DNA of 38,068 nt from a candidate division WOR-3 bacterium (GCA_965649055.1 CBFGJG010000002.1:51920-89987), one strand, 5' to 3'; positions 1-37,729 are shown, counted from the first letter of the stretch. The notes: generated from the letters alone by a model not told the origin. Numbers and translations: made by a program.

Positions 1-341
1 ATTAAAAAAATGTCATCTTTGAAATATGGGAAGTATTTCCCGACCAAATCCCTTTCTTTTCCTATCCTTATAGATGGAGAGAAATAAATGGGTATATTTT
101 CAATCGTTATACCTCTTAAATTCATATAATCACCAAAATGAATCCTCTTAGCAAACCTTAGAGAATCAAGTATAAATGAGAGTTTTTTTAAGCCAAAATC
201 ATCATTGTAAAAAGCAAAATCAGTGTTATATGTAAATTTTTCTAAACTATAGGAGAAATTAAATTCATTTATAGTATTATCCGGATTGGAATATAAAGAA
301 TATCCTGTTGAAATATAACCTGAAATAATAAGAAAAATCAT
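1..341 (-). CDS. N-terminal part of a putative outer-membrane usher-like beta-barrel protein (runs off the window edge; not in ORF track)
   Basis: ATG at 341 overlaps the TGA of the upstream chaperone gene (ATGA). The frame stays open to position 1: MIFLIISGYISTGYSLYSNPDNTINEFNFSYSLEKFTYNTDFAFYNDDFGLKKLSFILDSLRFAKRIHFGDYMNLRGITIENIP... Alternating aromatic beta-strand pattern; IHFGDY..LRG resembles the usher GD...RG segment. Confidence 0.6.
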   Translation of the reverse strand, partial: MIFLIISGYISTGYSLYSNPDNTINEFNFSYSLEKFTYNTDFAFYNDDFGLKKLSFILDSLRFAKRIHFGDYMNLRGITIENIPIYFSPSIRIGKERDLVGKYFPYFKDDIFL

Positions 342-1051
342 CTTATATCAAAGATTTTTTCGCCTTTTATTATCTCTGAACCACCATAATCAATCTCAAC
401 AGAGAAATAGTAATTTCCTTTCTTTAATCTCCTATTTATTTTATATAATCTTTCATAGTTTGGAAAGACAACACCACCAGGGATTGAATCTCTTAAAACA
501 TTATCTTTACCCATTTCTTTTATCTCATACCATATCTTTGGTCTTATTTTTATATTTCCTTCGTTTTTTAAAGTAAAATGAATAAAACCATCTTTTAAAA
601 AAATTGATTTAATATCTGCCTGTATAGACTGGATGTTTGTAGGAAGGACATAAAAAGAAATACCAATCCTTGGTGATATTATAACGGGTGTCCATACTTC
701 GGGTATGTTGACTGCTTCAAAAAATATTGAGCACCAATGTTCTTCATATATTTCAGGAATTACTACTGAATATCTCACCATTATTTTCTCTTTTGGTGGA
801 AGTGAAACCTCCGATGGATTGAGATGTATCCAGCGAGCACAGGAATTCTTTAAAGTATCATTCTTCGGATATTCTATCTCTCCTTCAATATTAACATAGA
901 AACTACCCGGATAACACTTTATTCTCAATGTCTCCACATCATCGGCATTAAAGACCTCAATCTCACCATTTTGGATTGTATTTGAACCGGCAACCTCTAT
1001 AATCGCTGGTGTTACAAGAAATTTTGCAACTGAAATGATTAAAAGAAACAT
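338..1051 (-). CDS. Putative pilus assembly chaperone (PapD/EcpB-like, two Ig-like domains; also resembles WxL-interacting DUF916/DUF3324)
   Basis: Motifs WIHLNPSEVSLPP..VRYSV.IP, WCSIFFE, RIGISFYV.P, LKNEGNIKIRP, VFPNYER, GNY..V.IDYGG; short hydrophobic N-terminus; lies between pilin-like genes and a barrel gene. Confidence 0.65.
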   Translation of the reverse strand: MFLLIISVAKFLVTPAIIEVAGSNTIQNGEIEVFNADDVETLRIKCYPGSFYVNIEGEIEYPKNDTLKNSCARWIHLNPSEVSLPPKEKIMVRYSVVIPEIYEEHWCSIFFEAVNIPEVWTPVIISPRIGISFYVLPTNIQSIQADIKSIFLKDGFIHFTLKNEGNIKIRPKIWYEIKEMGKDNVLRDSIPGGVVFPNYERLYKINRRLKKGNYYFSVEIDYGGSEIIKGEKIFDIR

Positions 1052-1076
1052 AAAAAAAGGGGGCTTAAGCCCCCTT
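1052..1076 (-). terminator. Intercistronic intrinsic terminator / stabilising hairpin after the major pilin-like gene
   Basis: Minus strand AAGGGGGC-TTAA-GCCCCCTT (perfect 20-bp palindrome 1057-1076) ending in a T7 run (1058-1052) directly before the chaperone ATG. Confidence 0.8.
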
Positions 1077-1081
1077 AAAAA

Positions 1082-1576
1082 TTAAAGTGTCTGCATTGTG
1101 ATTGTTACGGTTGTTGAATATGTTCCAGCTTCCTCATCTCCATCCATCCAGACACGCCAATCAAGGTTATAATCTTCCCAGCCTGTTGTTTTCCCGGTTC
1201 CATTTGTCAACTGAACATCAGAAGTTGTAAGGTCTGTCCAGGAACCAGCACCAGATAATGTATATTCAATATCACCTATAAGTATACCACCACCTGGGTC
1301 TCCTGAACCTCTTATCACAAGTTCCCAATCACCTGTTGTGTTTGTAAAGTATTCAACCTCCATATTAGGTGATGCAGACGGTGATGTCGGATAGTATACC
1401 TGTGGGAATGAAGCTGGTGGATATGTTGGAATACTCGCAAAATCCCATGTAACATCGTTCCCAACATAGATACCTACCCTTGTAGGTACAAGGAACTGTA
1501 AAGTGGCTGTCTGCGACTGCGGAGAAGCTCCTGTGGAACGACCAACACCCATCAACATAAACATAAGGAACATCAT
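1082..1576 (-). CDS. Putative major fimbrial subunit (Csu/spore-coat-U/WxL-like Ig fold)
   Basis: 164 aa, Thr/Gly/Ser-rich, C-terminal AGTYSTTVTITM strand typical of CU pilins and WxL proteins; strong SD (AAGGGAGG); followed by a hairpin. Confidence 0.6.
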   Translation of the reverse strand: MMFLMFMLMGVGRSTGASPQSQTATLQFLVPTRVGIYVGNDVTWDFASIPTYPPASFPQVYYPTSPSASPNMEVEYFTNTTGDWELVIRGSGDPGGGILIGDIEYTLSGAGSWTDLTTSDVQLTNGTGKTTGWEDYNLDWRVWMDGDEEAGTYSTTVTITMQTL

Positions 1577-1600
1577 ACAAACCTCCCTTTTTGGTTTAAA

Positions 1601-35534: not shown

Positions 35535-35561
35535 ATAAAATCCTCCTTTTTGTTTTTCTTT

Positions 35562-35737
35562 GGCTCTTTACTATTTATAGTGGTAAAAGGAAGAGCCTTC
35601 ATCCCTATACCACTCACCACCAAATATTGGCAGATTATTTTAAGGTGCCCGTTAAATAATAAAATTCTTTTTATAACTAAATCTTACCTTTTATTACACT
35701 TGTTCACTCCCATTTTAAAACCAAAATAGGCACCTTT
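35562..35737 (-). ncRNA. Candidate structured 5' leader (cis-regulatory RNA) of gdhA
   Basis: 5'-terminal AAGGTGCC pairs with GGCACCTT 79 nt downstream; followed by a 13-position stem whose loop GGCTCT can pair with downstream AGAGCC (H-type pseudoknot). Not recognised as a known family. Confidence 0.4.
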
Positions 35738-35743
35738 GTTGTT

Positions 35744-35771
35744 AGTATAATTATAAACTGGTAGTTGTCAA
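35744..35771 (-). promoter_or_regulatory. Sigma70-type promoter of gdhA (about 200-nt leader)
   Basis: TTGACA (35771-35766), 16 bp, TATACT (35749-35744). Confidence 0.65.
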
Positions 35772-36172
35772 GATTAAAATAAAAAATTTTTGGAAAAATT
35801 TCAGGGTATAGTAAATAATCAAAAAAGTGGATTAATGAGATCTACATAATGAATGCGAAACTGGATTTGGTGTAAGTATTGTATTAATAACTGGGAGGAT
35901 AACAAAATTTATCAAATTATGGATAGATAAAAAATACGTGCATAATTTAAAATCTATTTTGTAGATCTTTGCATTCACAAAATCCGGGTGTTTTTTAAAA
36001 AGTGGTTTTCAGGTTTCTCAATAACTTCTATTAATGTCTTAAAATTTTTTCAGATAAATATATGTTCACTTTATACCTTTTAATAAACCTTTTATCAATT
36101 ATATATCTTAACTTTACTTTTTTATTATTCTATATATAAAATACACTTAAAGTGTTTTATAATTATACTGTT

Positions 36173-37729
36173 TCACCATCTTTTATTGTATGTAATCCTT
36201 AGGAAAAATTCATTGTTATCTTCCTTCAATGAATATTCTGAACGAATGTTTAAATCACCAAACAGATTGAATCTGAATCCCTGTCCAATAAAAAATAGTG
36301 TCTTATCCATAAAACCTTTATTTATATTCACACCTGATGAGAATGTGTAAAATGACTTTGTATAACTTAATGAGAAAATATAATTATTTAAATACCTTGT
36401 GCTATCTTTATATTCATAATTCGAGAATCCAAGTAAAATATTCAATGATAATGGAAATGTGAAACCTAAACCATATGAAAAATAAAGATTCTTGGTTAAT
36501 ATCCTGTTTAATGTATCATTGTAATTATAACTGCTGTATGTGATATTTATATTATTATTCAGATTCAAAAACCTTAAATTCTTCCCAGTTGTGATATTAA
36601 AGTCATTCATCCTTTTATCGATATTAAAAGAGTCATTCTTCTCCATCTCCGGTGAAAAGAATACATTGAAATAAGGGAATACGGGATGAACAAAACCAAA
36701 CTGGAATTCATACCTTATAAAATTTGTGTGGTTTGAAAGACCAATATTGTTGTTTTCATTCCTGTAACCCAGATTTAATGTGAAGAAACTGAGGATTTCA
36801 GTATTAATACCAAAATTAAAACCATATCTATCCTGAACTATATCGGGATTCCCGAAAGAACTATACCCGGGCCCAACGAATCTGTATTCAAATGATAAAG
36901 ATGTATTTTTAATTGAAAATTCAGATTTTATTGAATATGCATAATCGAATGAACTGCTTAAATTTGGTTTAAAGATATTGAATACCCATTCAGGCTGATT
37001 GTATATGTTTAAAGGTGTTAGATTCAAGTCCCTTGTCAGCTGTGATAATGCAAACTCCCCTTTTAACTTTAAATTATTTATAAGACAAATTACTCCATCT
37101 ATCCCGAAAACATAATTTTCCTGTGGTCTAATAATAACTATAGAATCACTATCACCATAAGGAGAAAAATATTCAGGGATTGAATTTTTTATATCGTATG
37201 AATGTATAAAATTAAACAAAATATGTGTCCCTTCATCAGAACCAAAACCTGTTCTAAAACCAACAATATCCCTTTTATATGTTCCATAGACTGAATCAGA
37301 AGAAGATATAGGCTTTCTCATATTCCCATTTACAAATGCAAATCTTAAACCAATTAATGAAAAATCAATGAAAACACCATTCACAGGGACACTGAAGAGT
37401 GTAAGTTCTGAAAATTGCGGGTATGTTCTTCCGAAATTTATACCTTTTATATTAAATAAAAATCTTGGTATTTTAAGTTTCTCTTTTAAGAATTTTTCAG
37501 GTTTTAAATAAAGACTGAATTTATTTATATTCTGTCTTATCTTGCTCTGTTCTGTCGAGATAAGTGTATTCAAAGATAATGGTATCCCGAATATGTTAAA
37601 ATCAGGATTGAAATAAAATCTGAATACTGGTTTGTGGAAACCTGATGAATCAGAGATTATCTCATTATCAAATCCAATATTCCCGTGGAAAGTGAAACCT
37701 TGGGAAATAAGGATTAATATTATTATCAT
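36173..37729 (-). CDS. Uncharacterised outer-membrane beta-barrel protein
   Basis: Alternating aromatic strands throughout, C-terminal LRITYNKRW; motifs FGRTYPQFSELTL..VNG and YRFVGPGYSSFGNP; ATGA overlap with the upstream gene. Confidence 0.7.
   Translation of the reverse strand: MIIILILISQGFTFHGNIGFDNEIISDSSGFHKPVFRFYFNPDFNIFGIPLSLNTLISTEQSKIRQNINKFSLYLKPEKFLKEKLKIPRFLFNIKGINFGRTYPQFSELTLFSVPVNGVFIDFSLIGLRFAFVNGNMRKPISSSDSVYGTYKRDIVGFRTGFGSDEGTHILFNFIHSYDIKNSIPEYFSPYGDSDSIVIIRPQENYVFGIDGVICLINNLKLKGEFALSQLTRDLNLTPLNIYNQPEWVFNIFKPNLSSSFDYAYSIKSEFSIKNTSLSFEYRFVGPGYSSFGNPDIVQDRYGFNFGINTEILSFFTLNLGYRNENNNIGLSNHTNFIRYEFQFGFVHPVFPYFNVFFSPEMEKNDSFNIDKRMNDFNITTGKNLRFLNLNNNINITYSSYNYNDTLNRILTKNLYFSYGLGFTFPLSLNILLGFSNYEYKDSTRYLNNYIFSLSYTKSFYTFSSGVNINKGFMDKTLFFIGQGFRFNLFGDLNIRSEYSLKEDNNEFFLRITYNKRW

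Follow-up and report, generated by a model that had tools for sequence, protein, structure and literature searches.

Short uncharged N-terminal leaders as a probable second class of Sec export signal in a candidate division WOR-3 bacterium

How short may a bacterial export signal be, and does it need a positive charge? The question is raised by a stretch of DNA from a candidate division WOR-3 bacterium (GCA_965649055.1, CBFGJG010000002.1:51920-89987). The window, by which we mean the whole stretch of 38,068 nucleotides that was analysed, is part of contig C2 of a 2.08 Mb assembly, with 85 contigs, a G+C content (GC) of 31.6% and a completeness of 93.8%. The nearest named relative by BamA is a metagenome-assembled genome (MAG) of Candidatus Stahlbacteria, with 45% identity, and a public BamA with 77% identity is labelled candidate division WOR-3. 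All genes in this 38-kb window are on the minus strand. According to the original prediction, eleven proteins in the window begin with a very short hydrophobic leader without any basic residue, which was proposed to act as a minimal export signal. Sec signals usually have a length of 18–30 residues. Three parts are described in PMC9360617: an n-region which is positively charged, a hydrophobic h-region, and a polar c-region where the residues at -1 and -3 are small. The eleven N-terminal strings are all found at the predicted positions on the minus strand, and they are genuine N-termini. We consider it likely that they serve as Sec signals of a second, minimal kind. Judged from sequence comparison, these leaders are a real and distinct class, clade-specific and derived, which stands in for canonical signals on proteins that must cross the inner membrane.

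The class is not limited to the window. Genes were called with a home-made program (codon log-odds, greedy overlap removal and a choice of starts based on Shine-Dalgarno (SD) sites), which gave 1810 genes and 92.8% coding sequence. A leader was counted as short when Met is followed by at least five out of six residues in the set ILFVMWCA, provided that neither Lys nor Arg (K/R) precedes the core and that the first charge comes no later than position 15. Genome-wide, 161 of the 1773 genes which are not at contig edges (9.1%) fit the rule. When the same rule is applied to internal Met residues as a control, it fits 204 of 9227 positions (2.2%), so that about 39 cases would be expected among 1773 genes. 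In other words, about one protein in eleven begins with Met and six to nine hydrophobic residues. The consensus is M-I-F-L-I-L-S-L: positions 2–6 are mostly I, L or F, and Ser is found at position 7 in 51 of 152 leaders. Examples of short leaders are MFLIFSLLIENF, MTLILLASFE and MFFIMMALFPYDE, to be compared with MKKFLFVVLIFSLYMFAQE, a K/R leader of the same genome.

The position of the first charged residue is bimodal. It ranges from 7 to 15, with a peak at 9–11, in the 250 leaders without K/R, and from 16 to 25, with a peak at 16–21, in the 440 leaders with K/R. Hydrophobicity is similar: averaged over the first six residues of the core, the Kyte-Doolittle value is 3.10 in the short class and 3.00 in K/R leaders. 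Lipobox proteins keep K/R in 66 of 70 cases, and the median position of their first charge is 18. Since canonical K/R signals and canonical lipoprotein signals are both present beside the short leaders in one genome, the latter would be a second signal class, there has been no wholesale shift.

Are the proteins which carry these leaders exported? A set which does not depend on the N-terminus is provided by the C-terminal domain (CTD) of the type IX secretion system (T9SS), PF18962. There are 58 matches, ten of them in open reading frames (ORFs) cut by contig ends. The leaders of the remaining 48 were read by eye: 22 have a canonical K/R signal, 17 a short uncharged leader, two a longer uncharged leader, three an ambiguous start (with a short leader if translation begins at the second Met), and four have no recognisable leader. 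We have also examined with Pfam every fourth member of the short class, a sample of 41 proteins. Nineteen belong to envelope or secreted-type families (M16, LptD, OstA_2, Amidase_3, S8, C25, PGA_cap, GHL10 and others), the rest being one PorQ-like protein, five membrane proteins, eleven proteins without family and five cytoplasmic proteins. Short leaders are thus carried by BamA, by SprA and by proteins with LptD, OstA, M16 peptidase, Amidase_3 and S8 domains; a TolC-like protein, identified by eye only, also bears one. A C-terminal Phe is about three times as frequent in the short class (24 of 161) as in the class with no leader (53 of 1083), and a further transmembrane segment is found in only 17 of the 161 short-class proteins.

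The leaders are conserved in related genomes. BamA was detected in all 31 of them. Within the same family, order and class, the 22 BamA sequences with a readable N-terminus all have Met and six to nine hydrophobic residues, followed by a conserved FPYGEVI, with stop codons a few codons upstream; the N-terminus was unreadable at four further in-class loci. In other classes, BamA has K/R signals of about 20 residues in genomes G027 and G029, a 15-residue uncharged leader in G028 and a short uncharged leader in G030. SprA has a short K/R-free leader in the 24 readable in-class genomes, in G027 it begins with MKKVLIISVLFFLIQSSLLHSQE, which is MKK plus about 20 amino acids. The PorQ-like protein has a short uncharged leader in all 22 readable in-class orthologues. 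We should also note that many SprA leaders in genus g4 and its neighbours have an acidic residue at position 3 or 4 (MFELLLLISY, MLELLILISY, MPELILLFLSY); such leaders have a net negative N-terminus, the reverse of the canonical rule. Uncharged leaders of about 12–17 residues are found in G030 (100% complete, 3 contigs).

Equally short leaders are not spread across phyla among 103 public BamA relatives. They are found in the seven closest sequences (the query included), which have 733–738 amino acids and come from the gene calls of several pipelines, and in one more distant sequence (P0014). Nearly all other public relatives have K/R or long leaders. When samples of the proteomes of relatives are run through the same pipeline and rule, the short class amounts to 14 of 129 genes (10.9%) in G025, a member of the same class with 45% GC where many of these genes have a perfect SD, and to 12 of 259 (4.6%) in G019, of the same order. 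For genomes of other classes the figures are 21 of 338 (6.2%) in G030, 10 of 481 (2.1%) in G027, 12 of 431 (2.8%) in G028 and 5 of 157 (3.2%) in G029. In first, smaller samples of G027, G028 and G029, most of the matches that were read are cytoplasmic or membrane proteins.

Orthologues also show where the leader ends. We have taken reciprocal-best orthologues and compared the start of the local alignment in both partners. When a short leader in this genome is paired with a K/R signal in G027, homology starts a median of 20 residues later in G027; there are 12 such pairs, all with a positive offset, in the range 9–46. The median offset is 1 for 130 pairs with no leader and also 1 for 29 pairs with K/R signals in both partners. 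In G028 the median is 9, from 5 pairs. In alignments which reach the leader the difference is 8–12 residues, and the short leader and the canonical signal end at the same place. In one pair, MFFMFLIIA followed by EFNRTTGFIDAP corresponds to MKNVLVVFAVLLFVVPGFA followed by DFNRTSGLIDIP. In another, MIFFILFLS followed by DVEEIKYIGNREY corresponds to a canonical signal ending in IPLFALPAN and followed by DVKIITNRDY.

The junction after the leader is also biased. The first polar residue after a short leader is Gln in 19% of cases and Asn in 24%, their proteome shares among polar residues being 5% and 16%, while Lys or Arg account for 18%, against a share of 38%. The K/R class has the same bias at its junction (Gln 13%, Asn 30%, Lys plus Arg 25%). 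In 109 of the 161 short-class proteins the first charge is an acidic one, and the next ten residues have a mean net charge of -0.41, compared with +0.04 in a control. A or S is the last leader residue at the corresponding site in some of the orthologue pairs. These figures fit a processing logic which would be shared with the K/R class, without a sharp rule for small residues.

For five of the eleven window proteins, export is independently backed by family searches. The leader MLIFLLSF (28214..28237) belongs to a 1747 amino acid SprA/Sov translocon of the T9SS (TIGR04189, 209.3 bits, cut-off 200), and MTLILLAS (18729..18752) to a 271 amino acid PorQ/PorV-like outer-membrane protein (T9SS_PorQ, E 4e-16, below cut-off). 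Two are peptidyl-prolyl isomerases (PPIases) with rotamase domains: a SurA/PrsA-like protein of 366 amino acids, with a weak SurA_N match and the leader MFFLFLSV (30428..30451), and a PpiD/SurA-like protein of 510 amino acids (PRK10788, E 9e-27, below cut-off) with the leader MLGIFLFLNLFF (32759..32794). MVFLIICIM (7731..7757) begins a DUF4015 putative glycosyl hydrolase of 334 amino acids, whose domain (PF13200, E 3e-61) starts at residue 17. The other six leaders are MIFLIIS (321..341), in a 606 amino acid protein which runs off the window; MFLLIISVA (1025..1051), in a protein of 237 amino acids; MMFLMFMLMGVG (1541..1576), in one of 164; MILILIWAS (1997..2023), in one of 140; MFLIFSLLI (9267..9293), in one of 250 with no family above cut-off; and MIIILILISQ (37700..37729), in one of 518. 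The C-terminal residue is F or W in the SprA, PorQ-like and 518 amino acid proteins, the last one ending in W. The proteins starting at 341 and 37729 are uncharged up to about residue 20, with polar residues after position 8, so that their signals may be of normal length, lacking only K/R.

A twelfth case was absent from the original list. It is MDIFTLIHLFFVHFLYG (5883..5933), which has no K/R and has Asp at position 2, with a promoter-like box directly upstream. It begins a 1287 amino acid T9SS cargo protein with CBM96, beta-helix, BNR and Por_Secre_tail domains (the latter with 27.7 bits, cut-off 27). An internal contrast is given by the lipoprotein signal MKKVLYVLLVLALFSC (31218..31265) of a 270 amino acid PPIase, a textbook MKK...LFSC, as had been described. 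The cytoplasmic proteins of the window do not carry a short leader, as had also been claimed: these are a KsgA-type methylase, a response regulator, a histidine kinase, TrkA, GDH, an HflX-like GTPase, a phosphoglucosamine mutase-like protein and PdxA, whose identity is backed by Pfam PF04166.

The starts of the eleven genes can be read with some precision. The view that they had not been mis-called holds, since all eleven correspond to the longest possible ORF, with stops 0–18 codons upstream, and each start is the first ATG, GTG or TTG past the in-frame stop. The room between stop and start is 2 codons at 341, 10 at 1051, 8 at 1576, 4 at 2023, 5 at 7757, 15 at 9293, 0 at 18752 (the stop codon directly abuts the start of the PorQ-like gene), 18 at 28237, 4 at 30451, 5 at 32794 and 4 at 37729. 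The start codon is GTG at 28237 and TTG at 30451 instead of ATG. An SD site precedes seven of the eleven leaders. GGAGG is found 4–5 nucleotides before the starts at 1576 (GGGAGG, 5 nucleotides), 9293 (AAGGAGG, 4), 18752 (4) and 32794 (GGGAGG, 4), and there are weaker sites before 30451 (AGGAG), 28237 and 37729. The starts at 341 and 37729 have an ATGA overlap with the upstream stop. No SD was seen at 1051, 2023 and 7757 when the sequence upstream of the eleven starts was inspected; the first of these follows a terminator-like hairpin and a T-run, and a TTGACA promoter-like box is found by eye upstream of the other two. We have also considered upstream non-canonical starts by reading the codons between stop and start in all eleven cases. 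ATT or ATC is found only at 7757, 9293 and 28237, and at the latter two the SD sits directly before the called start codon, so this possibility was rejected.

Two observations on starts go beyond the eleven leaders. Several ORFs, for example on contigs C48, C10 and C12 of this genome, seem to begin with MEVFM..., MGEIM... or KEVFM.... In ATGGAGGTTTTTATG the SD region itself gives M-E-V-F-M on translation, so that the longest ORF is too long by four residues and the true start is the second Met. Besides, a TTGACA-type -35 box and a TA-rich -10 box end a few bases before the ATG upstream of bamA in genomes G000 (this one) to G025, and in the window at 2023, 5933, 7757 and 34107. This suggests that many genes may have leaderless or near-leaderless mRNAs. 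Starts of the longest ORFs lack an SD, by the score used, in 809 of 1810 genes.

Some neighbouring genes deserve a comment. Downstream of the gene for the T9SS cargo protein (2070–5933) there are four consecutive short-leader genes (3–2023), coding for proteins of 140, 164, 237 and 606 amino acids. No family was found for any of the four with Pfam or NCBIfam. Atlas searches only gave weak leads for the 164 and 237 amino acid proteins (WxL in 19% of one cluster for the former, and PapD_N, 27%, and WxLIP_HBD, 12%, for the latter), which hint that this group might be a small surface-fibre or chaperone-type cluster. A tRNA-Leu gene with anticodon TAG (17789–17871) is placed between the PorQ-like gene and an operon coding for trigger factor, ClpP and ClpX. 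A gene for a DUF6036/DUF2204/AbiEii-like nucleotidyltransferase of 183 amino acids (7796–8347) is flanked by two short-leader genes. All these genes are on the minus strand.

Two trivial explanations have to be weighed. The leaders could be an artefact of start calling: the true start would be upstream, at a non-canonical codon or through recoding, or else downstream, and the hydrophobic stretch would be a translated T-rich 5' untranslated region. It is true that 63 of 152 short-leader genes, in one count, have no SD by the score used, that some upstream in-frame stretches look rich in K/R, as with the PorQ-like gene of genus g4, and that public calls sometimes go wrong in other phyla, where a few short BamA sequences (828 amino acids) start at an internal Met of near-identical listed sequences of 843 amino acids. 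Nevertheless, the room between stop and start is two codons or less in 40 of the 161 short-class genes, and an SD score of at least 3.5 is as frequent in this class (66 of 161, 41%) as in leaderless-type, mostly cytoplasmic genes (460 of 1083, 42%). The K/R-rich stretch in front of the PorQ-like gene results from out-of-frame reading of the conserved 3' end of glmS, and it is interrupted by stops in the genome studied here. An alternative genetic code which would hide an N-terminal extension was rejected, since the three stop codons all terminate long ORFs: the 572 ORFs of at least 1200 nucleotides end in TAA (268), TGA (212) and TAG (92). No downstream start was found near the leader in the cases that were read, and the leaders are kept in a relative with 45% GC (G025). 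Moreover, without the leader BamA, SprA and the T9SS cargo proteins would have no signal at all. The artefact is thus largely refuted by the sequence, and we give it a very small probability. An even smaller one is left for chance, that is, for a composition effect in an AT-rich genome whose proteins are rich in Ile, Leu and Phe and may have hydrophobic N-termini, including the first beta-strands of cytoplasmic folds. Such a background exists: the internal-Met control still gives 2.2%, canonical relatives give 2–3%, and among the 41 members sampled there are five cytoplasmic enzymes in which the first strand happens to fit the rule. It does not account for the four-fold excess over the control, the bimodal position of the first charge, the association with exported families and with C-terminal Phe, or the presence of the trait in the 45% GC relative. 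Chance is refuted as a full explanation and accounts for only about 25–40 of the 161 cases; from the sequences, artefact and pure composition are essentially excluded.

As for the export machinery, the original prediction had two parts, which have fared differently. The proposal of a minimal uncharged export signal stands as far as real N-termini, presence on proteins which have to be exported, conservation within the class and the position of a canonical signal are concerned. Its corollary, an adapted SecA, signal recognition particle (SRP), SecY or signal peptidase, is not supported by the sequences examined: no component is missing, and each scores like an ordinary member of its family. There is one LepB (155.7 bits), with its Ser (GSM) and Lys (VKR) motifs intact, and only one S26 peptidase gene was found. 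SecY, SecA, LspA and peptide deformylase are present. The SRP is represented by Ffh (520.7 bits, over the cut-off), a 300 amino acid FtsY-type protein as a secondary match (196 bits) and the SRP RNA (68 bits), so that loss of the SRP has been rejected as a cause in this genome. Inspection for lineage-specific changes gave nothing striking in six LepB and five SecY sequences, and the catalytic motifs are intact. Beside the catalytic Ser of LepB, the sequence is VPTGSM in three in-class genomes (L034, L122 and L124), IPSGSM in two canonical ones (L120 and L121) and VPSGSM in G030, a difference which involves too few sequences, is confounded with phylogeny and is not counted as evidence. A separate observation concerns G030 and G026 (99% complete), which belong to other families of the same phylum: neither gave any match with the Ffh model, and both lack even the secondary match of FtsY type which is seen in almost all of the other 29 genomes. 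A match to the SRP RNA is also absent in G030.

If the leaders are indeed a Sec signal, a simple scheme may be proposed. The signal would be formyl-Met followed by 6–9 Ile, Leu or Phe residues, without Lys or Arg, often ending in Ser, Ala or Gly and running straight into an acidic or Gln/Asn-rich mature start. It would engage ordinary SecA and SecYEG, possibly with the SRP, through its hydrophobic core alone. If no basic residue holds the N-terminus on the cytoplasmic side, the leader would not have to cross the whole bilayer, and a stretch of 8–10 residues might be drawn in until the single LepB can reach it and cut after a small residue. LepB cleavage would probably take place near residue 7–11. 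We infer that export depends on Sec and that the uncharged N-terminus has a role in it. Lipoproteins might keep their K/R because a stable position in the membrane is needed for Lgt and LspA, which would fit this anchoring idea.

The main alternative is that export involves no cleavage, or takes a different route. The leaders would target proteins for export and stay uncleaved as hydrophobic tags, or they would use YidC or another insertase, or some lineage-specific factor or peptidase. Several features could be explained in this way: the junction has no clear rule for small residues, the leader is too short to span the bilayer, the short class is sharply separated from the K/R class in the same genome, as expected of a separate route, and lipoproteins stay outside it, 66 of 70 having K/R. 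We consider this rival unlikely, because the enrichment in Gln and Asn and the depletion of K/R at the junction are the same as in the canonical class, the two kinds of leader end at the same point in orthologue pairs, and only one S26 peptidase gene was found. Besides, retention of a hydrophobic N-terminal tag is not known from beta-barrel proteins like BamA or SprA. We should also list what speaks against a second class of Sec signal. For the six window proteins without a family match, export is deduced from the leader itself, and no RNA data set was found to cover positions 1–10000 of the window. The gene calls come from a home-made caller, and the five false positives in the sample of 41 (YchF, an NTP_transferase, a GT2 protein, Cas2 and a nitroreductase) bring the true class nearer to 135–140 proteins. 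A leader of 6–9 residues is shorter than textbook models require to reach the active site of LepB. The residue before the first polar one is S, G or A in about 28% of cases and L, F or I in about 50%, with no clear AxA rule. The offsets come from 12 pairs in G027 and 5 in G028, in samples which cover roughly one quarter to one third of the two genomes, and among the five or six sequences compared no lineage-specific change in LepB or SecY was found which would explain the tolerance of short leaders. All in all, we still favour a second class of Sec signal. The broader proposal that the whole taxonomic class runs two parallel kinds of Sec signal, in which a 7–10-residue uncharged leader, neither membrane-spanning nor anchored on the cytoplasmic side, drives the export and processing of essential proteins like BamA, LptD and SprA, is more tentative, and we would not put it beyond an even chance on the comparisons made here.

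How do these leaders compare with known systems? They resemble the canonical signal for Sec and signal peptidase (SPase) I in several ways: they are N-terminal, on periplasmic, outer-membrane or secreted proteins, with a hydrophobic core and a polar junction depleted in K/R, they are found in a genome with SecA, SecY, LepB and SRP, and they have the same alignment position in orthologues. They differ from it in having no positive n-region, neither in the eleven leaders nor in any readable in-class BamA, SprA or PorQ-like orthologue, in a core which consists nearly entirely of I, L and F, and in the absence of a clear rule for small residues at -3 and -1. Compared with the K/R class of the same genome, they have about 8–12 residues before the first charge, not about 18–22. 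Like lipoprotein (SPase II) signals, which are found in the same genome, they are short, hydrophobic and N-terminal, but none of the eleven has a lipobox Cys after the core. No twin-arginine (Tat) motif is found in the eleven, which have no Arg before or within the core. The length of a signal anchor, about 18 or more uncharged hydrophobic residues, is not reached either, as the first charge of the class is at position 7–15. Type IV prepilins have a short basic leader, a Gly cleavage site, a hydrophobic helix of about 20 residues and Glu at +5; by eye, none of the eleven has such a basic leader or motif.

A further parallel may be found in engineered signals of Escherichia coli with a neutral n-region or a shortened core, which showed that basic residues are not strictly needed if hydrophobicity of the core is high. 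They were made by mutating individual proteins in the laboratory and usually work less efficiently, whereas the leaders described here are natural, lineage-wide and found on essential proteins. Another parallel is the Q-rule, which, according to PMC5837995 and PMC10653852, holds in Bacteroidetes and not in the entire Fibrobacteres-Chlorobi-Bacteroidetes (FCB) group. Here too Gln is over-represented right after the leader, in a relative of the FCB group which has a T9SS, but the enrichment is modest (19%, against a share of 5%). Literature searches, which did not cover subscription journals, found no published description of the phenomenon.

In summary, these leaders test the tripartite n-h-c rule, which ranks among the most general in cell biology and is the basis of every signal-peptide predictor and secretome estimate. 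They provide a natural experiment: charge-free leaders of 8–10 residues on essential outer-membrane assembly proteins, beside ordinary SecA, SecY, LepB and SRP. Very short leaders may also have some appeal for the engineering of protein secretion. Surveys of secretomes, carbohydrate-active enzymes (CAZymes) and T9SS cargo which rely on signal prediction probably undercount the exported proteins of WOR-3 and Stahlbacteria-type MAGs. If the broader proposal of two parallel kinds of Sec signal is true, standard predictors would miss about 40% of the secretome of this lineage. In that case, a basic n-region and a core which spans the bilayer would not be required by Sec and LepB, and at least one other solution would exist beside them.

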